A DNA stretch of 64,000 nucleotides from positions 280,770 through 344,769 of IMG/VR virus record IMGVR_UViG_3300024252_000004; one strand, given 5' to 3'. Positions 3,306-44,846 of this stretch are shown piece by piece. Source of the stretch: a virus. Both the position numbers and the translations under genes were made by a program. The notes beneath the pieces were generated by a model that saw nothing but the letters and a program-made list of their open reading frames with translations, was not told the DNA's origin and made no database searches. The first letter of the stretch is position 1. Every line of letters starts with the position of its first letter.

Positions 3306-3656
3306 ATGGGCTGCCCAAATTGTGGTGGAGAATCATATCTGACGACTTATCGAGCGAGATACCCTCGTGCAGGTAAGAGTCTTTTGGTTAAGTCAAAATG
3401 TATGATGTGTTCATCCTGTAGGACCCGGATAGGTCCTTTCAAATTCTTGACACCAGCGTTGGCAAATGAAAATGATGCTAACGCCGAGATAGAATGGGAA
3501 AGAAAATATAATGAGAAGATGCCTCCAGAATATCCGATGGGTCGTATAAGAAAGATTATGCGAACAGAGGAAGGTAAAAGGCGTGTAGCTGAAGCTTTTG
3601 GAAAAGCTTTGTACAAAGAAGTAGAGAAAACCTCTAAGGAGAGTAAAGATGATTAA
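3306..3656 (+). CDS. zinc-ribbon protein (CPNCG..CMMCSSC)
   Basis: 116-aa ORF with two Cys pairs. Confidence 0.45.
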   Translation: MGCPNCGGESYLTTYRARYPRAGKSLLVKSKCMMCSSCRTRIGPFKFLTPALANENDANAEIEWERKYNEKMPPEYPMGRIRKIMRTEEGKRRVAEAFGKALYKEVEKTSKESKDD

Positions 3657-4020
3657 TCAGAGCGATGTTGTTGAATACCTAAAGAACGTTAGCGTTATTG
3701 AACTTAGAGGTCTTATCGGGACTCTGGAGGATGAGCTTGGAGTTAAGATTCCAGAATACACAGCACCTTCTCAGTACGATCTCGGTTTTGGTGGCGGAGA
3801 GGTAGAGCAGACCGAGTTTACCGTTGTCCTTCAGGGCTTTGAGGGTAAGAAGGTTGCACTGATTAAGGTCGTGCGAGCACTTACAGGTCTCGGTCTAAAG
3901 GATGCAAAGGTCGCGGTAGAGTCCGCTCCTTATGTGATTAAGGAAGGCGTTGATAAGGGCGTAGCAGAAGAGGTTGCCGCTTCTATGAGAGAGGTTGGTG
4001 GCTTGGTAGACATTGTATAA
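3649..4020 (+). CDS. rplL: ribosomal protein bL12 (L7/L12) homolog
   Basis: SD AAGGAGAG then ATG 3649; N-terminal dimerisation/L10-binding region and C-terminal TGLGLKDAKVAVESAP..KEGV align with bacterial RplL. Confidence 0.8.
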   Translation: MINQSDVVEYLKNVSVIELRGLIGTLEDELGVKIPEYTAPSQYDLGFGGGEVEQTEFTVVLQGFEGKKVALIKVVRALTGLGLKDAKVAVESAPYVIKEGVDKGVAEEVAASMREVGGLVDIV

Positions 4021-5813: not shown

Positions 5814-6689
5814 ATGAAACCAGTAGTTCTTTTTGATATGGATGGCACATTAACTGAGCCAAGAAAAACAGTAGAAGCTCCGATGCTTCGGGCGTTAGAG
5901 ACGCTGATGCAATACGCTGTAGTAGGCATTGTATCCGGCAGTGATTACGATTACATCTATCAACAGATGGAACTTGATAAAAATGATTTAAAAGATGTTT
6001 TGATTTATCCTTGCAATGGGACAAAGAGATATGTCTATGATCAAGTTAAGAAACGTTGGGAAAATACGTTTTCTGTCGATATGAAAGAGGAGATCGGGGG
6101 CGAGAAGCTTTATAGTTTAATGGAGCTACTTTTAGATTGGCAGCTATTCTATCTTGAATCTGCAAAGAAAAATGGTTTCAAGACGCCCCTTACGGGTTTG
6201 CACTTACAGAACAGAGGCTCCATGATTAACTGGTGCCCAATTGGACGAGGCGCAGATCACGACGAAAGGAAATTGTTTCAGGACTATGATGCAAATACTT
6301 CTTGGCGAGAAGAGACCCTTCCCTTGTTGGAAGATGAAATCGGACTAAGAGTAGAAGGAGTAACAGTTGTCAAAGGCGGATCAACATCATTCGACATCTA
6401 CCCAGACGGATGGGATAAAAGATTTGTCAAAAGATTCCACGAAGGACAAGAACTCTATTTCGTTGGAGATCGATGCGAAAAAGGTGGGAACGATTACGAG
6501 CTTTACGCCGATCTTAAAAGATCCAAAGAAAGTCGCACCTTTGAGCGCAAACAGCTATTCTTTCCCTGGTCTAAAGTCAATCAAGATGAGTGCAAATATC
6601 AAGATTCTTTTAACACCGGATCTCCGGAAGAAACAAGCAGGATCATTGAAGAGGATCTCATCCCGCGTATCGTTAAGGCGCGAGTTTGA
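5814..6689 (+). CDS. phosphomannomutase, eukaryotic-type (HAD-IIB, PMM family)
   Basis: SD GAGGTG then ATG 5814; VLFDMDGTLT motif I, SFDIYPDGWDKRF and GGNDYEL match PMM family; C-terminal ~40 aa extension. Confidence 0.75.
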   Translation: MKPVVLFDMDGTLTEPRKTVEAPMLRALETLMQYAVVGIVSGSDYDYIYQQMELDKNDLKDVLIYPCNGTKRYVYDQVKKRWENTFSVDMKEEIGGEKLYSLMELLLDWQLFYLESAKKNGFKTPLTGLHLQNRGSMINWCPIGRGADHDERKLFQDYDANTSWREETLPLLEDEIGLRVEGVTVVKGGSTSFDIYPDGWDKRFVKRFHEGQELYFVGDRCEKGGNDYELYADLKRSKESRTFERKQLFFPWSKVNQDECKYQDSFNTGSPEETSRIIEEDLIPRIVKARV

Positions 6690-7457: not shown

Positions 7458-8146
7458 AATGAATTCGATCATATTGGAAATTAAAGCTGCCGAAGGCGGC
7501 ACAGATGCAAAGCTCCTTGTTGATGAACAGTTGGCCATTTATAGGAGATACTGTTCTCGGAGGTCTCTTTGAGTTAGCTCTCTTAGATTCCAGAAGCGGT
7601 TTTATCAGATGCAGAGTCAGCGGCAAAAACGTCAAAAAACATTTTAGGCATGAGCCTGGAGGCCACAGATGGCAAAGGGTTCCTCCGACAGAGAGACGAG
7701 GAAGGGTTCATACTTCTACGATCACTGTCGCTGTCCTACCGGAAGTAACTGAATCTGAAGTTAAGATTAGCGAAAAAGATTTAGAATGGAAAGCCTTTAG
7801 GGGTTCTGGTCCCGGCGGTCAGCATAGAAACAAAACTGATTCTGCTGTGTCGCTTCACCATAAGCCTACTGGAATCAAGATCCGTTCTGAATCTCAAAAG
7901 AGTCAGAAGCAGAATAAGGACACCGCTCTTGCAATATTGAGAGCGAGGTTGCATTCTGAGCAGAGAGAGTCTCAGTCTTTGCGACGCAGTAATATGAGGA
8001 AGAGCCAAGTGGGCTCAGGTATGCGCGCCGACAAAATCAGGACGATCAGGTTGCAGGACGGACAAGTTACGGATCACAACACTGGAAAAAGAATCTCTGC
8101 GAAAAAATATTTGCGCGGAGACTTGGAAGGTCTATTTGAAAAGTAA
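7458..8146 (+). CDS. class I peptide chain release factor, RF1-like (PxT = PPT), lacking domain 1; needs +1 frameshift at 7570 and has an additional +1 frame break at 7499/7501
   Basis: SD GGAGG + ATG 7458; MNSIILEIKAAEGG (frame 0) / TDAKLLVDEQLAIYRRYCSRRSL (frame +1, stops at UGA 7570) / ELALLDSRSGF..GGHRWQRVPPTERRGRVHTS..SGPGGQHRNKTDSA..DKIRTIRLQDGQVTDH (frame +2) align contiguously to RF1. Confidence 0.75.
7559..7573 (+). other. prfB-type programmed +1 ribosomal frameshift site
   Basis: GGAGG-UCU-CUU-UGA-G: SD-like element 3 nt upstream of CUU UGA, same architecture and spacing as E. coli prfB AGGGGG-UAU-CUU-UGA-C. Confidence 0.7.
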
Positions 8147-8524: not shown

Positions 8525-8617
8525 TGCGGGGTCGACTAGTCTGGCCCATGTCACCAGTCTCATAAGCTGGCTCTGAGTATACCTCAATCGTTGGTTCAAA
8601 TCCAACCCCCGCACCCA
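8525..8617 (+). tRNA. tRNA-like, anticodon CAT on class-II scaffold (19-nt variable arm), CCA encoded
   Basis: acceptor TGCGGGG/CCCCGCA perfect, D stem GAC/GTC, anticodon stem CCAGT/GCTGG loop CTCATAA, variable arm hairpin TGAG-TATAC-CTCA, T arm identical to tRNA 2556. Confidence 0.5.
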
Positions 8618-13130: not shown

Positions 13131-13664
13131 TCAATTCCGATCTGTTCCACCACTGAATCGTCCATCACCTGATAGGAAGTGATCAACTTCGTGACAGGTC
13201 GGACAAACAATCTCTAAGTTCTCAATCGAGTTATTCTCTCTATTGCGATCTTTATGATGAACTTGTAGAACTTCAGGATGCTTATCGTATCCGCAATGAG
13301 AGCATATCTGTTCAAGATGCTCTTTTGCAGTTTTGCGATAATCCTTTCGGTTATCAGTATAGTGCGGCGGATGAATTTCTTTTATCCCTCCTATCCTTTG
13401 TGCAATATCTTTGCAATTTCTTGAGCAAAAAACAAATCCGCTTTTAGATGCAGCAATCTTAGAGGCAGACCTGTAAAAGTCTTTATCACAAATAGCACAA
13501 ACACAATTTGGCTTTTGTATCTTCGGATTTTTCTTTCTCCATTCAAAAGAGCATTTGCGATTGCAAAATTTTGCGTTTCCTCTGTTTAATTCTTTAATTT
13601 CTGCATCAAATTGCGTATAACAATTTAAGCAACTTTTCTTAATGGTTCTACCTTTGTAAGACAT
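13131..13664 (-). CDS. HNH homing endonuclease
   Basis: HHKDRNRENNSIENLEIVCPTCH HNH motif plus multiple CxxC pairs; sits between tRNA-Tyr and tRNA-Cys. Confidence 0.75.
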   Translation of the reverse strand: MSYKGRTIKKSCLNCYTQFDAEIKELNRGNAKFCNRKCSFEWRKKNPKIQKPNCVCAICDKDFYRSASKIAASKSGFVFCSRNCKDIAQRIGGIKEIHPPHYTDNRKDYRKTAKEHLEQICSHCGYDKHPEVLQVHHKDRNRENNSIENLEIVCPTCHEVDHFLSGDGRFSGGTDRN

Positions 13665-13821: not shown

Positions 13822-13843
13822 CTCCCTTAGCTCAGTTGGTTAA
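13822..13843 (+). pseudogene. tRNA 5' remnant (acceptor + D arm start CTCCCTTAGCTCAGTTGGTTAA) truncated by HNH gene
   Basis: canonical tRNA 5' end with no matching D-stem 3' strand, anticodon or T arm; overlaps the stop of minus-strand HNH 13840-14325. Confidence 0.45.
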
Positions 13844-14325
13844 TTCCATTTTGGTTTTAACTTATAGTGTTCTTCTCTGTGGCAGTTTGCACACAGCATG
13901 ACGCATTTGTCAAGTTCAGCTTTAATGGTATCCCAGGCATAAGTATTCCCAGAGCCAATGCCGAAATCTTTCTCGTTTGGTTCTAAATGGTGAAAATCAA
14001 ATGCATCAATACATTTGTCATATCCACAATACTCGCACTTTTCTCCTTTATATTCTACGGCTTTAATCTTACACTGCCATCTTCTTTTTTGCACATAGTA
14101 CTTGTTCTTACACTTTTTTGAGCAAAATTTTCCTGAAGATGGCAAGTCACACAAATGCCATGTGCATTCCAAAGCTTTTGACTTTTCTTTATTTTTTGGA
14201 GAAGTTGATAGTCCAAATTTCTTAAGCCAATGACGAACATTTGTTTGCGAGCAAGATAGCTCTTTTGCGATTTCTCTGGTAGAATAATTATTATCAACTA
14301 ATAACTTTAAAGTTTCTAATTCCAT
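13840..14325 (-). CDS. HNH endonuclease with N-terminal HTH
   Basis: FDFHHLEPNEKD...LCANCHREEH HNH motif; N-terminal STREIAKELSCSQTNVRHWLKKFG helix-turn-helix. Confidence 0.75.
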   Translation of the reverse strand: MELETLKLLVDNNYSTREIAKELSCSQTNVRHWLKKFGLSTSPKNKEKSKALECTWHLCDLPSSGKFCSKKCKNKYYVQKRRWQCKIKAVEYKGEKCEYCGYDKCIDAFDFHHLEPNEKDFGIGSGNTYAWDTIKAELDKCVMLCANCHREEHYKLKPKWN

Positions 14326-14365: not shown

Positions 14366-14452
14366 GCTACTGTGGCCGAGCGGTTGAAGGCAGCAGGCTG
14401 TTAACCTGCCTGGGAAACCACATCATAGGTTCAAATCCTATCGGTAGCGCCA
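14366..14452 (+). tRNA. tRNA with tRNA-Ser body (D arm TGGCCGAGCGGTTGAAGGC, long variable arm, G73) but anticodon GTT
   Basis: acceptor GCTACTG/CGGTAGC, anticodon stem GCAGG/CCTGC loop CTGTTAA (one change from Ser GCT loop CTGCTAA), CCA encoded. Confidence 0.5.
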
Positions 14453-15288: not shown

Positions 15289-15704
15289 AAAGAGTTTATG
15301 TTGATATGGACGGAGTCCTTTGTGATTACGTTGCAAAATTTACAGAACTCCGTAACGAAGGAAACAAGTTTCCTCAGCAAAGCTTTGACTTCTTCAGAAG
15401 TATGAAGCCTATGCCATCGGCTCTTGCAGCTATGGGAATACTATCTAAACATTTCGATGTTTGGATTTTGACTAAGCCTTCCTACAAAAACCCTATGTCT
15501 TATACAGAAAAGAGACTTTGGGTTGAGGACCATCTTGGTCTGGATTGGTGTAAGAAGCTGATCCTTTGTCCTGATAAGGGATTGGTTATAGGAGATTATC
15601 TTATTGATGATTTCTTGTGGCCTGAATTTCAAGGTGAACAAGTTCATTTTGGTTCAAATAGATTTCCAAATTGGAGATCGGTAATAGATTATATGCGCCC
15701 GTGA
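15246..15704 (+). CDS. HAD-superfamily 5'(3')-deoxyribonucleotidase-like phosphatase
   Basis: VYVDMDGVLCD motif I (DxDxV); start may be TTG 15284 rather than ATG 15246. Confidence 0.55.
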   Translation: MGMATRSCSGRNKLKRVYVDMDGVLCDYVAKFTELRNEGNKFPQQSFDFFRSMKPMPSALAAMGILSKHFDVWILTKPSYKNPMSYTEKRLWVEDHLGLDWCKKLILCPDKGLVIGDYLIDDFLWPEFQGEQVHFGSNRFPNWRSVIDYMRP

Positions 15705-15785
15705 GCCGAGTGGTTGATGGCCCCAGACTCTTAATCTGGTACAGGTAGTGCTGCAACGTAGGTTCGAATCCTACCGGGCGTACCA
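15695..15785 (+). tRNA. class-II scaffold tRNA with anticodon CTT (Lys codon AAG), A73, CCA encoded
   Basis: acceptor GCGCCCG/CGGGCGT, D arm GCC-GAGTGGTTGAT-GGC, anticodon stem CCAGA/TCTGG loop CTCTTAA, 18-nt variable arm, T-loop TTCGAAT. Confidence 0.5.
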
Positions 15786-20282: not shown

Positions 20283-21515
20283 ATGAGTAAGCCAGTAGAT
20301 TTTTTGATTTCATTTGACACCACGGGCAGCATGTATAGTTGTCTGTTGCAGGTGAGACGTAAGGCCGCAGGACTTGTCGAGCTTCTGTTTTCGCAGAACC
20401 CTGATATCCGTATCGGAGTAATTGCTCACGGTGACTATTGTGACACCTCAAGTTCTTACTTGAGCAAGGTTCTTGACCTTACAGAGAATAAGCGTTCTAT
20501 TCTTGAGTTTATCGAAACAGTTGGTAGCACAGGTGGTGGAAGCTTCGCAGAGGCTTATGAGCATGTTTTGTGGCAGGCTCGTGCTCTTACTTGGAGGGCA
20601 GGAAGTGAGCGTGCATTTGTCATGATTGGCGATGCTGTACCTCATAATAAAAGTATCTGGGGAACCAGAGAGGGTGGACACATCGTTAACCCTAAGTCTC
20701 TTGATTGGCAGAATGAAGCAAAGGTTCTGCATCAGGATCTTGGAGTTAAGATTTTCGGAGTCCATGCGTTGGCTTCCGCTCGTAGAGGCAGCGCATACTT
20801 CTGGAAGGATCTAGCAAGTATCACTGGCGGAAAGTACCTGAAGCTTGATCAGTTTGATGAGCTTTCTTACATGTTGAGAGCCATCATGTATAATCAGTCT
20901 GGTCAGGACGAGTTCATGACTCAGTTTGTCAACGAGGTAACGAACGACAGACAGATGACTCAGAACATGGCTGATATCTTTGAAGACATGACAGGTTCTC
21001 GACCTGAGGTCAACAAGGTTTCTATCGGTGGCGGTGGAAGAGGTAGAACGAGAACAAGGACTACGACCAGAACGGTAACAGTCGCGACAACTGTGTCTGC
21101 TTCAGACCTTGCAGCTTACCCTGATGTAAGCTTGGAGCCAGTAGCTCCGGGTAGATTCCAGATGCTTTCAGTCGAAACAAAGTCTCCGATTAGGGACTTC
21201 GTTAGGGACAATGTTGGTGCGACTCTTTTCAAAAAGGGTGCAGGTTACTACCAATTAGGTTCTAAGGCTGTGAAGATCCAGGGATACAAAAGAGTCGTTC
21301 TTGTCAATAGAGAGACGGGCGAGCTTTGGTCTGGAGATACAGCGAGAAAGATGCTTGGACTCCCGTTTGGGAAGGATTTTAAACTTTATCCTAAGAAGGT
21401 AGAGACTCAGAAGTTTCTCAGCGAGTACGATGTATTCGTGCAGAGCACCTCGGTTAACCGAGCACTGCAAGCTGGTGATGTCTTCTTGTACGAAGTTGCC
21501 GAGTTCGTGTCATGA
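20283..21515 (+). CDS. von Willebrand factor A (vWA) domain protein
   Basis: N-terminal ISFDTTGSM MIDAS-like motif and vWA fold; Arg/Thr-rich low-complexity linker; -10 TATAAT 20255 and SD upstream. Confidence 0.6.
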   Translation: MSKPVDFLISFDTTGSMYSCLLQVRRKAAGLVELLFSQNPDIRIGVIAHGDYCDTSSSYLSKVLDLTENKRSILEFIETVGSTGGGSFAEAYEHVLWQARALTWRAGSERAFVMIGDAVPHNKSIWGTREGGHIVNPKSLDWQNEAKVLHQDLGVKIFGVHALASARRGSAYFWKDLASITGGKYLKLDQFDELSYMLRAIMYNQSGQDEFMTQFVNEVTNDRQMTQNMADIFEDMTGSRPEVNKVSIGGGGRGRTRTRTTTRTVTVATTVSASDLAAYPDVSLEPVAPGRFQMLSVETKSPIRDFVRDNVGATLFKKGAGYYQLGSKAVKIQGYKRVVLVNRETGELWSGDTARKMLGLPFGKDFKLYPKKVETQKFLSEYDVFVQSTSVNRALQAGDVFLYEVAEFVS

Positions 21516-21690: not shown

Positions 21691-21768
21691 GGGGAATTAG
21701 CTCAATTGGCCAGAGCGGCAGATTCTAGACCTGCGACAGTGTGGGTTCGAGCCCCACATTCCCTACCA
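21691..21768 (+). tRNA. candidate amber-suppressor tRNA, anticodon CTA, tRNA-Trp-like body
   Basis: acceptor GGGGAAT/ATTCCCT, D arm GCTC-AATTGGCCA-GAGC, anticodon loop TTCTAGA on stem GCAGA/CCTGC (A-C mismatch at 31-39), 6-nt variable, T arm GTGGG-TTCGAGC-CCCAC, CCA encoded. Confidence 0.5.
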
Positions 21769-21916: not shown

Positions 21917-21993
21917 GCTCTAGTGGTCTAATGGTTAGGATACCGGCCTTTCAAGCCGTGTGATTGCCAGTTCGAATCTGGTCTAGAGTACCA
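21917..21993 (+). tRNA. tRNA-Glu(TTC), CCA encoded
   Basis: acceptor GCTCTAG/CTAGAGT, anticodon loop CTTTCAA, T arm GCCAG-TTCGAAT-CTGGT. Confidence 0.6.
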
Positions 21994-22027: not shown

Positions 22028-22126
22028 GGGATAGTTGCTGACAGGTAGGCAGCTACTTATTTGGAAGCGTTCTTAAGGGGCCTGCCTCCTATAGATCGGG
22101 GGGTTCGATTCCCCTACGGAGTACCA
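22028..22126 (+). other. tRNA-like 3' fragment (T arm + acceptor 3' strand + CCA) without a matching 5' acceptor strand
   Basis: GGGGG-TTCGATT-CCCCT then ACGGAGT-A-CCA at 22097-22126; no complementary 5' strand within 100 nt upstream. Confidence 0.3.
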
Positions 22127-22618: not shown

Positions 22619-22694
22619 GGTACCTTAGCAAAGTTGGTCTATGCGCCCGTCTGAAGAACGGGATATTTCGGTTCGATCCCGAGAGGTACCACCA
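22619..22694 (+). tRNA. tRNA, anticodon GAA (Phe-like, G37), CCA encoded
   Basis: acceptor GGTACCT/AGGTACC perfect, anticodon stem CCCGT/ACGGG loop CTGAAGA, T arm TTCGG-TTCGATC-CCGAG. Confidence 0.55.
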
Positions 22695-23238: not shown

Positions 23239-23756
23239 TGAAATACAAAGTAAAGAAAGGTGCGATGAACTCGGGCGGCATTAGTAAACTCATAGAGTTT
23301 GCAGAAACTCTGAACTATACGCCGTGTTCAACTTGGCTCGGATATTACAAAGAAAAGGTATTCTACCTTGGCGATATGAGCAAAGAAGATGTTCCGAAAA
23401 TTCTGCACAGTCTTGCTCCTGCGATCCTCGGAAAGCTATCGGCTCTTGGAGAGCTAAGCGAAGACAATCTTTTTAATCAAATCGTGATTAAGAAGTATGC
23501 CGAAGGAGACGAAGGCAAGCCGCATTTTGATCCAAGAGATATTAAGGGGAAGGTCGTTGCAATTCACTTTGGTGACTTTGAGCTTAGTACGGTAAGGTTT
23601 GATGGCGAAGAAGTAATGGTTGACTCTGGGGATGTCATCATCCGACAGGCAACATCGGGTTACACGATGGGGCCAAAGTACAACGTAAGTGCAGTTGAGG
23701 GCGGCACAAAATATGTCCTCGAATTCCAAACAATCACTAAGGAGAAACCCTCTTGA
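23238..23756 (+). CDS. hypothetical protein
   Basis: 172-aa ORF from GTG overlapping previous stop. Confidence 0.45.
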   Translation: MKYKVKKGAMNSGGISKLIEFAETLNYTPCSTWLGYYKEKVFYLGDMSKEDVPKILHSLAPAILGKLSALGELSEDNLFNQIVIKKYAEGDEGKPHFDPRDIKGKVVAIHFGDFELSTVRFDGEEVMVDSGDVIIRQATSGYTMGPKYNVSAVEGGTKYVLEFQTITKEKPS

Positions 23757-24238
23757 AAACAAGAGTAAATTCTGATATCATAGCAAGAAGAGTTCTTCTC
23801 ATTGGAGGAGACGGTTCCAAGGTTGGCATTTTTCAGACAAGAGATGCCATAAGTAAAGCACAGGAGGCAGGTCTTGACCTGTTGCAGGTCAGCGCAGATC
23901 AGGAAGTTCCCGTGTGTAAGATTGTCGATTATGGCAAGATGCTTTATCTTCTAAAGAAGGGCAAGAAGGCTAAGGGATCAAGGGTTGTTGTGAAGGAAGT
24001 GAAGTTCGGACCTAACACTGGTGATGCTGATATTCAGGTCAGAGTTAAGGCTGCGAACAAATTCCTCTCCAAGGGTAACCACGTCAAGTTTACCGTCAGG
24101 GTGAAGGGTCGTGCAAACGCTCACAGAGACCTTGTCATCGATAAGCTTGCAGAAGTTCTTGAGAAGGTAGAGGGGAAAGTAGAGAAGGCTCCATCCTTCT
24201 CAGGCAACATATGCTCGGCGCTTGTCGTGCCGGAGTAA
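23753..24238 (+). CDS. infC: translation initiation factor IF-3 homolog, UUG start
   Basis: SD AAGGAGA then TTG 23753, no in-frame ATG before conserved NTD; LIGGDGSKVGIF..EAGLDLLQVSADQEVPVCKIVDYGK and KEVKFGPNTGDADIQVRVKAANKFL..RVKGRANAH match IF3 N and C domains. Confidence 0.8.
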   Translation: MKTRVNSDIIARRVLLIGGDGSKVGIFQTRDAISKAQEAGLDLLQVSADQEVPVCKIVDYGKMLYLLKKGKKAKGSRVVVKEVKFGPNTGDADIQVRVKAANKFLSKGNHVKFTVRVKGRANAHRDLVIDKLAEVLEKVEGKVEKAPSFSGNICSALVVPE

Positions 24239-24249
24239 ACTCATAATGT

Positions 24250-24327
24250 ACGTGCCCATGTTCCAAGGCAAGGCGACAGAGATTCCAAATCTCCGTGGGT
24301 GGGGTTCGATACCCCAGGTGCGTGCCA
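24250..24327 (+). tRNA. tRNA-Trp(CCA), CCA encoded
   Basis: acceptor ACGTGCC/GGTGCGT (G-U pairs), anticodon loop TTCCAAA, T arm TGGGG-TTCGATA-CCCCA; D arm atypical. Confidence 0.55.
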
Positions 24328-29241: not shown

Positions 29242-29508
29242 ATGTTTGTTGTTCACTTCAAATCAGAATCTGGTGACAATTACTACTCAGCTTTCGAAAG
29301 AAAGCCTGACGATTACGAATTGAAAGTTTGGATCATTTATCATTGGCCTGAATCAATTGAAGATGGCGTCTGCTATATTCATGTTAATAGCGTTACAGAG
29401 TGTGAGTTTTATGACGTAGACGAAGGTGATTTGGATCTCAGAGAGTTGCCGTATCCCGACAAAGTGGAGTGGATGTTGCCGTATCCCGACAAAGTGGAGT
29501 GGATGTAA
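29242..29508 (+). CDS. hypothetical protein with duplicated LPYPDKVEWM C-terminus
   Basis: 88-aa ORF; C-terminal 20 aa encoded by tandem repeat 29445-29504. Confidence 0.4.
   Translation: MFVVHFKSESGDNYYSAFERKPDDYELKVWIIYHWPESIEDGVCYIHVNSVTECEFYDVDEGDLDLRELPYPDKVEWMLPYPDKVEWM
29445..29504 (+). repeat. perfect tandem duplication, 2 x 30 bp (GTTGCCGTATCCCGACAAAGTGGAGTGGAT)
   Basis: identical adjacent 30-mers, in frame. Confidence 0.9.
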
Positions 29509-29930
29509 TGTACAAAGTTAACCATGATCATTTTCGATTGAACGCAGAAGAATCTGCTTGTCTTGACAAACAGTTTGAATCACTCATAATTAAGCACGCT
29601 CATTTTATTATGAAGAACGGTTTAAGTCATTTTTTTGTGGTTGCTATTGAGGATAAAGAATTTCGGATAAAGTTTAAGTGGCCAAAGGGTTCCTGGGTTG
29701 ATGCCGACGATGGACGCGGGAAGAGAATAGCTGATGATGCAGTTCCTATTGGGGCGACAATGCAATACAGGGATTATAGAAAAAACGCTTATGATCATGG
29801 TGCTGTTGAAAAATATACCTGCTCTGAGTTTTACAATAAAACAATGATTGATCTGAATGATATCTTTGGTAGGACGTTGAGAGCACAAATGAGGTATCAC
29901 GATCATAAATGCAATTTTTGTGAGTCTTGA
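29508..29930 (+). CDS. hypothetical protein
   Basis: ATG 29508 overlapping previous stop by 1 nt; longer ORF from 29469 crosses previous gene. Confidence 0.4.
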   Translation: MYKVNHDHFRLNAEESACLDKQFESLIIKHAHFIMKNGLSHFFVVAIEDKEFRIKFKWPKGSWVDADDGRGKRIADDAVPIGATMQYRDYRKNAYDHGAVEKYTCSEFYNKTMIDLNDIFGRTLRAQMRYHDHKCNFCES

Positions 29931-39525: not shown

Positions 39526-39840
39526 TTGGAGCGTATATTGCCAAGCATTACTATTAGCAAAGAGGCCATTGAAGACATCATGTGGTCATCTGTTGGTCCA
39601 TCCGATAGCGGAGCATTCATCATTGTGCATGAAGGCGAGTGGACGCAGGACGGAAAATGTCAGTATCAGGAGATTATCTTCAAAAACACTGGCGATACTA
39701 AATGCTATTCATTTAACATTTCACGTTCTGGCTCTCCATTTACGTATTGGCATTACGACACAGAGTACATGGAAGAGATGACGTGTACCGAAGTTGAAGA
39801 AGTAGAGATCATTACCAAAATGTGGAGAGCCGTAAAGTAG
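39526..39840 (+). CDS. hypothetical protein
   Basis: 104-aa ORF. Confidence 0.4.
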   Translation: MERILPSITISKEAIEDIMWSSVGPSDSGAFIIVHEGEWTQDGKCQYQEIIFKNTGDTKCYSFNISRSGSPFTYWHYDTEYMEEMTCTEVEEVEIITKMWRAVK

Positions 39841-39858: not shown

Positions 39859-40554
39859 ATGGATTCCGCGAAATATCCCAGGTCGCTGCATTGGCCGAGT
39901 TCCCCAGGAACTACCTCAGATGACCGTTTCATTACACAGGCACAAGCGCTCGCATTTCTAAATGTCGAGACTGTGCTTACCGAAAAGCTTGACGGTGGAA
40001 ATACTACCATAACGAGAGATGCCTTTTTTGCAAGGTCTCATGGTGGAGAACCAGCTCACCCGTCATTCAATCTTCTACGCACCCTTCATAAGAATTATCT
40101 ATGTAGGGCCATTGATAAAAATATATCAGTATTTGCTGAGTGGTGCTTCGCAGTACACTCAATTAGGTACTCGATGCTTCAAGATTATCTCAACATTATC
40201 GCCGTCAGGAATGATGAAACCGGCGAATGGTGGGATTGGGACGAAGTATGTTTGATGGCTGATCACCTCGGCTTCCCCACTGTACCAGTTCTACTCCGTG
40301 GAACGTTTACAGACATAGGCGCCTTGGAAAAAACTATGACCACGTTCTCTGGCTTGTCGTCTTTGTACGGCCCAACAAGAGAAGGTGTAGTTCTAAGAAA
40401 AGTCAAGGGTGTTGCTGAGATCAAAGACGAGCGTGGTCTTTGCTTAGATGGTCTTGCTAAGTGGGTAAGAGAAGATCATGTTCAAACGGACGAACATTGG
40501 AGCAAGAAGAAAGTTGAAATTCAGCCAACCATATCGGCACTGAGTTTTATGTAA
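39859..40554 (+). CDS. ATP-dependent RNA ligase (RNA_ligase/DRB0094-like family)
   Basis: KYPRSLHWPSSPG..DD N-terminal signature and nucleotidyltransferase motif I TEKLDGGN (KxDG). Confidence 0.6.
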   Translation: MDSAKYPRSLHWPSSPGTTSDDRFITQAQALAFLNVETVLTEKLDGGNTTITRDAFFARSHGGEPAHPSFNLLRTLHKNYLCRAIDKNISVFAEWCFAVHSIRYSMLQDYLNIIAVRNDETGEWWDWDEVCLMADHLGFPTVPVLLRGTFTDIGALEKTMTTFSGLSSLYGPTREGVVLRKVKGVAEIKDERGLCLDGLAKWVREDHVQTDEHWSKKKVEIQPTISALSFM

Positions 40555-44443: not shown

Positions 44444-44846
44444 GGGGGCGTTTTGGATTCGACCGGGTAACAGATAGGAATAGTGCAAGCCGATCAAGGT
44501 AACTCAGATCGTTATAAGCGTTACAAAAAACAAACTAGTTGACGACTATTCATTCGTGTACGCAAACGCAGGCAGAGGCTTCGGCGCTCCTGTAGTAGCA
44601 TACGCCTAATTCCGATTTAGGCATGTGGACTCTGTGTTCCATATATCCAAACACAGATAAGTGGTTGAACGCACTGACATAAACATTGTTCAAAAATGGA
44701 GTAGCCCGAAAGGGAGGAGGCGTCTATCATTTGGCGTCAGGGGATAAAATGAATACTTTGCCTATTTAGAGAAATGGGATAAGCTTGTGAACGACTTGAA
44801 ATTGACGTTATGCGACACGAGGGTTCGACTCCCTCCGCCTCCACCA
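44444..44846 (+). ncRNA. ssrA: tmRNA (SsrA), standard one-piece
   Basis: 5' GGGGGCGTTTTGGATTCGACCGGG and 3' GAGGGTTCGACTCCCTCCGCCTCCACCA match tmRNA termini; acceptor GGGGGCG/CGCCTCC with G3-U70 and A73; tag frame GCA AAC GCA GGC AGA GGC TTC GGC GCT CCT GTA GTA GCA TAC GCC TAA (ANAGRGFGAPVVAYA). Confidence 0.85.

Follow-up and report, generated by a model that had tools for sequence, protein, structure and literature searches.

In a stretch of 64,000 nucleotides from a viral genome (IMG/VR record IMGVR_UViG_3300024252_000004, positions 280,770 to 344,769; hereafter the window, by which we mean the whole stretch that was analysed) lies a tRNA gene with the anticodon CUA, which we call tRNA(CUA). 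Judged by its sequence, this tRNA is an amber suppressor that should pair with UAG, and we lean towards the reading that it is a maintained and tuned partial suppressor, acting without wholesale recoding of TAG. Phage-encoded suppressor tRNAs are already known; what is unusual about tRNA(CUA) is its pairing with a release factor of the RF1 type together with abundant TAG stops, and its conserved 4-bp anticodon stem. The DNA that we read comprised 83 kb of this genome (82.8 kb; the window with 10-kb flanks), or ~20% of it, plus 21 kb of a sister genome. The gene and its anticodon arm are located as follows.

21691-21768, plus strand: gene of a candidate amber-suppressor tRNA (anticodon CUA); A73 and the encoded CCA are included (ARAGORN, Rfam RF00005, minimum free energy fold, orthologue)
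21725-21727, plus strand: anticodon CTA, tRNA positions 34-36, in the loop TTCTAGA at 21723-21729 (direct reading and ARAGORN)
21718-21734, plus strand: anticodon arm GCAGA-TTCTAGA-CCTGC with four pairs and the unpaired A31.C39, a 4-bp stem 'unpinned at the bottom' (ARAGORN and minimum free energy fold)

ARAGORN called a 78-nt tRNA with the anticodon CTA on the plus strand at 21691-21768 (GGGGAATTAGCTCAATTGGCCAGAGCGGCAGATTCTAGACCTGCGACAGTGTGGGTTCGAGCCCCACATTCCCTACCA), and the Rfam model RF00005 matched it over positions 1-71 of 71 with 54.4 bits (gathering threshold 29, E = 6e-9), a score that falls inside the 43-70 bit span of the other 30 tRNAs of the window. The sequence forms a cloverleaf with a 7-bp acceptor (GGGGAAT/ATTCCCT, with G1.U72), a D arm (GCTC-AATTGGCCA-GAGC), an anticodon arm and a T arm (GTGGG-TTCGAGC-CCCAC), and it carries U8, A14, G18G19, G37, a 6-nt variable loop, the T-loop sequence TTCGA, A73 and an encoded CCA; the sole deviation is the unpaired position 31.39, where A31 faces C39. 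CUA stands at positions 34-36 of a 7-nt loop (TTCTAGA) and is preceded by U33, the arrangement by which an amber suppressor is recognized, and the minimum free energy (MFE) fold is a cloverleaf with a 4-bp anticodon stem and a 9-nt loop. The original prediction, an earlier reading of the letters alone, had described a CUA-anticodon cloverleaf at these positions, and ARAGORN, Rfam and the sequence itself bore out every structural detail that it listed; it had also proposed running tRNA prediction tools, and ARAGORN called CTA and no sense anticodon. The label tRNA-Pyl that ARAGORN attached to the gene reflects the anticodon alone and was rejected. Pyrrolysine tRNAs have a 3-nt variable loop, a short D loop without G18G19 and a 6-bp anticodon stem, and they go with pyl genes, whereas tRNA(CUA) has a canonical GG-containing D loop, a 6-nt variable loop and a 4-5-bp anticodon stem; the search for a PylS-like signal gave just one sub-threshold match, inside a lysyl-tRNA synthetase (LysRS), with 34 bits against a cut-off of 178.

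The argument that the gene is maintained comes from a sister genome, a 405,912-bp scaffold (locus L178) with about 75% nucleotide identity to the source genome. The VWA-like protein encoded next to tRNA(CUA) (20283-21515) has an 88% identical homologue on this scaffold, and the locus is syntenic with the window (roughly 70-85% nucleotide identity), its tRNA array being similar too. Matches to the VWA-like gene below 45% identity were considered as further relatives, and most of them are probably not, as this gene is common in bacteria. An orthologous CUA tRNA lies at L178:9900-9975, directly upstream of the VWA-like gene, whereas tRNA(CUA) lies downstream of that gene in the window. The two tRNAs share CUA, the UUCUA loop core, G1.U72, A73, the D stem, G26 and the 6-nt variable loop; the loop of the orthologue reads TTCTAAA against TTCTAGA in tRNA(CUA), and 31.39 is unpaired in both, as C31.U39 and A31.C39, respectively. 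Of the 21 stem pairs compared, four (2-71, 5-68, 29-41 and 49-65) differ in both partners and no pair differs in just one, and slid registers of the alignment contained no double change at all. A covariance model built from the two sequences gave 102.9 bits for tRNA(CUA) and 100.6 bits for the orthologue, which were reciprocal best matches, with everything else at 64 bits or less in 350 kb of tRNA-rich sequence and at about 50 or less in either array. On this comparison the two genes are orthologues that have been maintained as tRNAs and have kept CUA. Because the orthologue keeps CUA and the stem changes are all compensatory, tRNA(CUA) is held by selection and is not a pseudogene, with the reservation that two sequences were compared.

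It had been suggested in the original prediction that the gene may be degenerate, and a neutral or decaying duplicate, whose anticodon mutated to CUA and is tolerated without function, would fit an array full of duplicates (Pro three times; Ile, Met, Asn, Phe, Asp, Glu and Lys twice each), the anticodon-stem mismatch, the failure to find a target TAG in the sampled DNA and the fact that IMG/VR holds no CUA carrier of the exact variable-loop and T-arm signature discussed below. We nevertheless give this explanation very little credence. The four stem substitutions are all compensatory, the anticodon has been kept across about 25% nucleotide divergence, and the Rfam score is typical of the array. 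The features that had looked degenerate do not set the gene apart: G1.U72 is common in the array, occurring in 10 of its 31 tRNAs (two Arg, two Lys, two Glu, three Leu and tRNA(CUA)) in combination with A73 or G73, and the 31.39 mismatch and the 6-nt variable loop are both conserved in the orthologue. The A36-G37-A38 loop context also occurs in tRNA-Phe(GAA) at 22619. The gene is moreover identical in every metagenome copy that contains it; these population copies (L001-L009) are about 100% identical throughout, which says nothing about selection, and they were discarded as evidence for it. The wobble pair at the top of the acceptor is found in the array of the sister genome as well and amounts to an unusual house style.

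The unpaired 31.39 position recurs among CUA tRNAs. In a survey for which 1,386 distinct tRNAs were collected, it was mismatched in 54 of 1,370 sense tRNAs (3.9%) as against 6 of the 14 distinct CUA tRNAs, namely tRNA(CUA), its orthologue in the sister genome and four from other large viral contigs (L187, L193, L216/L233 and L225). All six share a UUCUAxA loop, a GAGC-G-GC junction and A73 and may share ancestry, so that they do not count as independent cases; no TAG-specific coverage gain was seen at their loci. The four additional members (on L187, at L193:6510, at L216:1560, which equals L233:7665, and at L225:5322) come from contigs of 103-456 kb and have a UUCUAAA loop, two of them (L187 and L225) also have a 27.43 mismatch, and the anticodon arms of all four resemble those of tRNA-Arg(UCU) slid by one nucleotide. 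A 2026 survey found that 4-bp anticodon stems are common in bacteria and that unpinning of the top pair increases the reading of stop codons, a tRNA-Thr with CUA reading UAG better and a tRNA-Trp with CUA reading UAA; bottom-unpinned stems were set aside there and phages were not mentioned (PMC13092985). Like the 4-bp-stem tRNAs studied so far (Blastocrithidia-type tRNA-Trp; PMC13092985), tRNA(CUA) has one terminal stem pair that is unpaired and conserved, but the studied stems are top-unpinned (27.43) and mostly go with near-cognate anticodons, whereas tRNA(CUA) is bottom-unpinned (31.39), carries a fully cognate CUA and belongs to a phage. Our analysis suggests that the 31.39 mismatch is more plausibly a trait of the family, by which decoding could be tuned, than a sign of decay, and the conserved unpaired position, with the 4-bp stem that it leaves, may tune the decoding strength of tRNA(CUA). 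Such a conserved bottom-unpinned stem offers a testable handle on the natural tuning of suppressors and extends the work on 4-bp stems to phages.

The same mismatch could also make the decoding non-canonical, with an effective 9-nt loop (A-UUCUAGA-C) that allows the tRNA to read UAA via C:A wobble, the quadruplet UAGA with UCUA, or AGA via UCU. This is compatible with the MFE fold, with the conservation of the mismatch in the orthologue and its frequency in CUA over sense tRNAs, with the likeness of the arm to tRNA-Arg(UCU) arms shifted by one nucleotide, and with the report that unpinned stems alter stop reading, including a CUA tRNA that reads UAA (PMC13092985). The published effects, however, concern top-unpinned (27.43) and not bottom-unpinned stems (PMC13092985), the A.C and C.U oppositions can stack within the helix and leave a normal 7-nt loop, and the six CUA tRNAs are probably related and not independent; A follows TAG at 4 of 16 TAG stops, which is chance level. 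We therefore consider non-canonical decoding decidedly improbable and keep to partial suppression at UAG. Another tRNA, at L182:9398-9474, upstream of a VWA-like gene on a 61%-GC contig, has an 8-nt anticodon loop (CUUCUAAU) for which ARAGORN gave the 4-base anticodon 'tcta'. It was considered as a third homologue and withdrawn, since the 4-nt-gap pattern matches ordinary tRNA-Arg(UCU): 56 of the 62 viral matches and all 114 genome matches were tRNA-Arg. The tRNA itself could be an Arg(UCU) derivative or a reader of UAGA or UAG.

Throughout the DNA read, from the source genome and the sister alike, TAG is an ordinary stop codon. Greedy open reading frame (ORF) coverage of the window was 0.814 under the standard code and 0.813 with TAG as sense, there was no TAG-specific coverage gain in the flanks or at the sister locus, and we found no in-frame TAG inside genes in the window, in the 10 kb on either side or in the 21 kb of the sister. 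ORF coverage, a scan of junctions and the alignment of orthologues hence confirmed the earlier remark that the long genes of the window are free of in-frame UAG. Alignments of orthologous proteins from the two genomes run over the full length without an internal stop; the few stops that were flagged fall in spurious ORFs, which overlap tRNAs or use another frame. The terminal stop codon can differ between orthologues, with changes from TAA to TAG and from TAG to TGA among them. Crude gene calls on the plus strand of the window end in TAA 46 times, in TGA 44 times and in TAG 16 times; over the 82.8 kb the counts are 54 for TGA, 49 for TAA and 16 for TAG, which ends 13-15% of genes, makes up 19.6% of off-frame stop triplets and is not notably avoided as a stop. 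The GC content is 42.7% and stop usage is not dominated by TAA, unlike the profile of recoded phages. According to the published criterion, contigs of at least 100 kb are recoded when coding density rises by >5% with TAG as sense; in the sampled DNA we found none of the marks of a TAG-recoded (code 15) genome, that is, in-frame TAG, a density gain of >5%, rare TAG with TAA dominance at low GC, or an RF2.

Back-up stops behind TAG were also looked for and are not enriched, the median in-frame extension being 9.5 codons after TAG vs 6-6.5 after TAA or TGA. The only long same-frame TAG junction, at 39838, lies between a 104-aa ORF (39526-39840) and a 231-aa protein (39859-40554) that are 18 nt apart. 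It was rejected as a site of programmed readthrough: an AAGAGGA Shine-Dalgarno sequence and an ATG lie in the 18-nt spacer, the downstream protein starts with a KxDG motif of its own near the N terminus, and same-frame extensions just as long are found behind TAA and TGA stops. The 231-aa protein, which readthrough of this TAG would fuse with the 104-aa ORF, is ligase-like by its KxDG nucleotidyltransferase motif.

The sensitivity of the coverage test can be judged from Aeromonas phage Akh-2 (MK318083.1). In its structural region, coverage rose from 0.281 under the standard code to 0.935 with TAG as sense, compared with 0.336 for TGA and 0.409 for TAA, and the longest ORF grew from 278 to 1,575 aa; with TAG as sense, coverage also rose from 0.637 to 0.870 in the early region and from 0.628 to 0.748 in the tRNA region. 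In the deposited annotation the structural region is broken up into a multitude of 100-600-nt fragments, and Akh-2 is evidently TAG-recoded. Because the same test is so sensitive in Akh-2, the flat coverage result is meaningful for the sampled 20% of our source genome, and more generally this simple test separates recoded from non-recoded regions very sharply. The tRNA-Sup-CTA of Akh-2 (64060-64131) and related Shenzhenvirus phages is also the nearest annotated tRNA to tRNA(CUA), with 76-78% identity and 55.5 bits under the two-sequence model. It likewise lies in a phage tRNA array and has A73, but it has G3.U70 and a fully paired 5-bp anticodon stem where that of tRNA(CUA) has 4 bp, and its genome is plainly TAG-recoded by the test that is negative for the genome of tRNA(CUA). 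Akh-2 is a cultured T5-like phage that was deposited with a standard-code annotation, in which the tape-measure, tail-fibre and connector genes are shown fragmented (record positions 83,000-111,000).

A release factor is encoded upstream in the window:

7505-8146, plus strand: truncated RF1-type release factor of 213 aa, a probable antagonist at UAG and not a demonstrated partner (NCBIfam, PDB comparison)

Its type is clear from profile and structure-database comparisons, with 210 bits for NCBIfam prfA vs 137 for prfB (profile positions 157-335 of 347) and 161 bits for RF1 vs 92 for RF2 in PDB; the decoding residues of RF1 (QRVPPTE..HTS, aligned to QRVPVTE..HTS, with PPT as the PxT-type motif) and GGQ are conserved, and about 140 N-terminal residues are missing. 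RF1 reads UAG and UAA. The relation between the tRNA and the factor would thus be antagonistic, because the factor is of the RF1 type and terminates at UAG. We propose that tRNA(CUA), once transcribed and charged, would compete at UAG with the RF1 of the host and probably with the short RF1 of the phage, and that this competition would limit its output, giving partial suppression and not wholesale reassignment of TAG. The original prediction had linked the tRNA and the release factor in a joint manipulation of stop-codon decoding, a link that is weakened by this opposition and by the distribution of the factor. Its 120 best database matches are all about 160-230 aa long with 50-87% identity, and three of them (L370, L371 and L372, on contigs of 72 to 422 kb) lie in the same module, in which tRNAs are interspersed among genes for a peptide deformylase, a cupin, a LysRS-type synthetase, an AAA ATPase, a cytidylyltransferase-like protein, an HD-domain protein, the short RF1 and IF3. 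The short RF1 is a family trait. At these three loci we found no recoding signal, and no CUA tRNA within 10 kb of the short RF1, a result that does not prove absence since the distance in the source genome is 13.5 kb. The module was seen on several contigs of about 70-420 kb, one of them in the NCBI metagenome-assembled genome JBFPEB010000362.1 (404,969 bp). A bolder proposal, which we regard as improbable, is that the six tRNAs with the 31.39 mismatch form a phage CUA class whose stem is deliberately unpaired there so as to set the strength or breadth of decoding (partial UAG, UAG plus UAA, or UAGA), working against the short RF1 so that the phage would set the ratio of amber termination to readthrough without recoding.

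The alternative that has to be taken most seriously is late-gene recoding of the code 15 kind, in which structural and lysis genes in the other ~330 kb need tRNA(CUA) and the early region remains compatible with the standard code, as in the model of Borges et al. Published work associates Sup-tRNA(CUA) with TAG recoding, places the recoding in structural and lysis genes and leaves the early genes standard (bioRxiv 10.1101/2021.08.26.457843). The nearest annotated relative of tRNA(CUA) sits in the TAG-recoded Akh-2 genome, and if selection keeps CUA, there should be UAG codons that have to be read. The Sup-tRNA(CUA) genes of code 15 phages (crAss-like, Lak, Agate and others; 10.1101/2021.08.26.457843, PMC13037316) likewise lie among tRNA and translation genes in a standard-code-compatible region, and these phages, like the source genome, are very large and encode a class I release factor. 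The source genome differs from them in having no in-frame TAG or coverage gain in 83 kb, in TAG being undepleted and GC not low, and in its release factor: TAG-recoded phages carry RF2, and RF1 goes with TGA recoding (bioRxiv 10.1101/2021.08.26.457843; PMC13037316). Moreover, the early and tRNA regions of Akh-2 do show the TAG signal that is absent from our 83 + 21 kb, and neither the share of TAG at gene ends nor the balance of stops and GC, as given above, is that of a recoded genome. On balance we consider late recoding unlikely.

Several points weigh against a partial suppressor without wholesale recoding and should be set beside this judgement. The association of suppressor tRNAs with recoding in the literature is strong, and the nearest annotated relative comes, as said, from a recoded phage. 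The sample leaves out ~80% of the genome, and with it all structural and lysis genes, so that TAG-containing late genes have room to exist, and no capsid or terminase gene was seen in the DNA read. The short RF1 is truncated by ~140 N-terminal residues, and its activity at UAG is a prediction from sequence. Finally, the covariation comes from two sequences only, for which the shuffle control is weak with its two rows, 32 of 500 shuffles reaching the observed value.

Suppressor tRNAs in standard-code genomes have precedents, among them an Agate phage with a TGA suppressor (Borges et al. Fig. 3A, 10.1101/2021.08.26.457843) and 0.3% of standard-code bacterial genomes (PMC13092985). As in the source genome, the sampled genes of these carriers use the codon in question as a stop, and the carriers have been read as precursors of recoding, in which the target stop is already rare, or as rescuers of nonsense mutations; in the source genome, by contrast, stops at TAG are common, and two genomes that have diverged both keep the tRNA. 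A suppressor tRNA in a phage is usually taken as a marker of recoding, yet tRNA(CUA) is clearly selected where TAG is a frequent ordinary stop and an RF1-type opponent is encoded. If the rest of the genome also follows the standard code, tRNA(CUA) would be a clear example, from nature, of an 'orphan' amber suppressor that is maintained, and the question would then be what partial readthrough of UAG does for the phage.

A role outside translation, as a decoy for host anticodon nucleases or other tRNA-targeting defences or as a regulatory RNA, would sit well with the result that no UAG target was found in the sampled DNA. Phage tRNA arrays are thought partly to counter tRNA-targeting defences. 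The full cloverleaf, the encoded CCA, the conserved elements of the T and D loops and the strictly kept anticodon are, however, what a translating tRNA needs, and nothing about the gene is specific to a decoy; we hold such a role to be highly unlikely.

The body of tRNA(CUA) was compared with other tRNAs with respect to its origin. The original prediction had called it tRNA-Trp-like and compared it with the E. coli suppressor su7, and had noted a normal tRNA-Trp(CCA) at 24250, which is indeed present:

24250-24327, plus strand: ordinary tRNA-Trp(CCA), dissimilar to tRNA(CUA) (ARAGORN; identity 0.63)

A su7-like suppressor derived from tRNA-Trp that acts together with the release factor to reprogramme stops has almost no probability in our eyes. 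The likeness consists of D-loop (AATTGG) and T-loop (TTCGAG) sequences that are generic and common to many tRNA classes. Against the tRNA-Trp origin, a blastn search of tRNA(CUA) against 5,426 complete E. coli genomes found no similar tRNA, its identity to the window tRNA-Trp ranks 7 of 30 (the best being Ala, with 0.71), and Trp was never among the nearest classes for either half of the molecule when the anticodon arm was masked. Bacterial tRNA-Trp has G73 as its discriminator, and G73 is what the window tRNA-Trp has, whereas tRNA(CUA) and its orthologue have A73. With su7, a tRNA-Trp(CUA), tRNA(CUA) has only the CUA anticodon in common; there is no detectable sequence relationship, and the discriminator and the 1-72 pair differ. 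The partner proposed in that scheme is, in addition, an RF1-type factor found in relatives without a CUA tRNA within 10 kb.

The variable loop and T arm (CAGTGTGGGTTCGAGCCCCAC) pointed elsewhere, being an exact instance of the 21-nt signature CAGTGTGGGTTCGANNCCCAC of short-variable-arm tRNA-Leu. Among the IMG/VR tRNAs carrying this exact signature, 74 of the 76 with a called anticodon have a Leu anticodon (TAA 53, CAA 13, TAG 6, GAG 2) and none has CUA. The phage short tRNA-Leu family (of type-I length, for example the tRNA-Leu(CAA) of Erwinia phage phiEa21-4) shares with tRNA(CUA) not only this signature but, in many members, also G1.U72 and A73; its D stem is GCC/GGC, whereas tRNA(CUA) has a 4-bp GCTC/GAGC stem and a non-Leu anticodon. 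Still, an assignment to a parent isoacceptor failed. When the anticodon arm was masked, the 5' half proved generic, at about 0.8 to Ala, Gly, Lys, His and Val alike. The affinity of the 3' half to Leu (0.86-0.90) is in part circular, as the comparison set was chosen on that motif, and the orthologue in the sister genome lacks the Leu signature, its 3' half scoring 0.76 to Leu vs 0.74 to Pro. Closest overall to tRNA(CUA) are the Akh-2 Sup-CTA, some Lys(UUU) and short Leu(UAA) tRNAs.

The amino-acid identity of tRNA(CUA) cannot be read from its body or assigned from sequence, the candidates being Leu, Lys and Gln. For Leu, the anticodon plays no part in recognition by the leucyl enzyme, and the discriminator is A73. 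For Lys, the synthetase depends on U35 and A73, and the genome brings its own LysRS, a full-length class II enzyme (538 bits vs a cut-off of 468) encoded about 9.5 kb upstream of the window. This enzyme is not specifically linked to the suppressor, because it is conserved in relatives regardless of a visible CUA tRNA. For Gln, C34, U35 and a weak 1-72 pair are favourable, and the points against it are that G2-C71 is not conserved in the orthologue and that the discriminator is A73 rather than G73.

The surroundings of tRNA(CUA) are those of a large translation module, the features of which are as follows.

21917-21993, plus strand: tRNA-Glu(UUC), 148 nt downstream of tRNA(CUA) (ARAGORN)
22032-22055, plus strand: terminator-like stem-loop after the pair of tRNA(CUA) and tRNA-Glu (consensus scan, 1 site vs 0.5 in shuffles, which is weak evidence)
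874-34845, all tRNAs on the plus strand: tRNA array containing tRNA(CUA), with 31 tRNA genes and with small ORFs and HNH endonuclease genes between them (ARAGORN, Rfam)
3649-4020: L7/L12 homologue
23753-24238, plus strand: IF3 homologue of the translation module (Pfam IF3_N and IF3_C; conserved in L178 and L370)
44444-44846, plus strand: tmRNA gene of the translation module (ARAGORN; Rfam RF00023, 81.2 bits)

A scan upstream of tRNA(CUA) found no sigma-70-like promoter, and tRNA(CUA) and tRNA-Glu(UUC) are possibly co-transcribed in one unit. The array goes on upstream of the window with two further tRNA-Gln genes, so that the module has at least 33 tRNAs, and YqeY is among the translation genes in or just outside the window. 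The tag peptide predicted for the tmRNA is DDYSFVYANAGRGFGAPVVAYA, whose end is not the usual ALAA-type motif.

The same sequence, about 100% identical, is present in many metagenome assemblies, with contigs of up to 413,986 and 414,644 bp. Megablast of the window found no similar phage, and two large proteins of the window have no homologue among 50,697 phage records. From the gene content, the PHROG hits, the HNH endonucleases and the IMG/VR relatives we infer a phage-like 'huge phage' of ~414 kb; large plasmid-like elements with similar sets of translation genes are described in the literature. The 83 kb contain no multi-copy protein family usable for reaching other parts of the genome.

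Four tRNAs of the array have a long variable arm (2556-2646, 8525-8617, 14366-14452 and 15695-15785) despite the anticodons Ile(GAT), Met(CAT), Asn(GTT) and Lys(CTT), and near each of them lies a twin of normal length. With its D arm (GGCCGAGCGGTTGAAGGC), long arm and G73, the long-arm Asn(GTT) tRNA has a Ser-type body, and a single base separates it from Ser(GCT). The sister genome has kept it, the variable arm and T stem differing by compensatory changes (L178:343-431 and 5836-5920 are listed with the long-arm set), and deliberate mis-decoding or a dual identity is conceivable for this tRNA.

Within the tRNA array, the opposite strand encodes HNH-type homing endonucleases, at 13131-13664 and 13840-14325 (both on the minus strand). 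Their homologues, with about 50% identity (L173-L177), are located inside the tRNA arrays of otherwise unrelated phage contigs of 446-448 kb, which suggests that these endonucleases target tRNA arrays. At 29445-29504 there is a perfect tandem duplication of a 30-nt unit (GTTGCCGTATCCCGACAAAGTGGAGTGGAT, twice), at the junction of the overlapping ORFs 29242-29508 and 29469-29930.

JGI metagenome contigs, a collection in which this phage is barely represented, were scanned by exact IUPAC matching for a 28-nt promoter-like repeat (consensus TTTTCTAAATTTCYCRYARGAKGKTATA), and one 1.7-kb contig only was returned. In the window this repeat occurs ten times, always on the plus strand and ahead of genes or tRNA groups (positions 661, 8434, 12812, 22707, 26278, 36130, 38513, 48593, 58985 and 63867), and downstream of it also at L047:19049; it is probably a phage-specific promoter.

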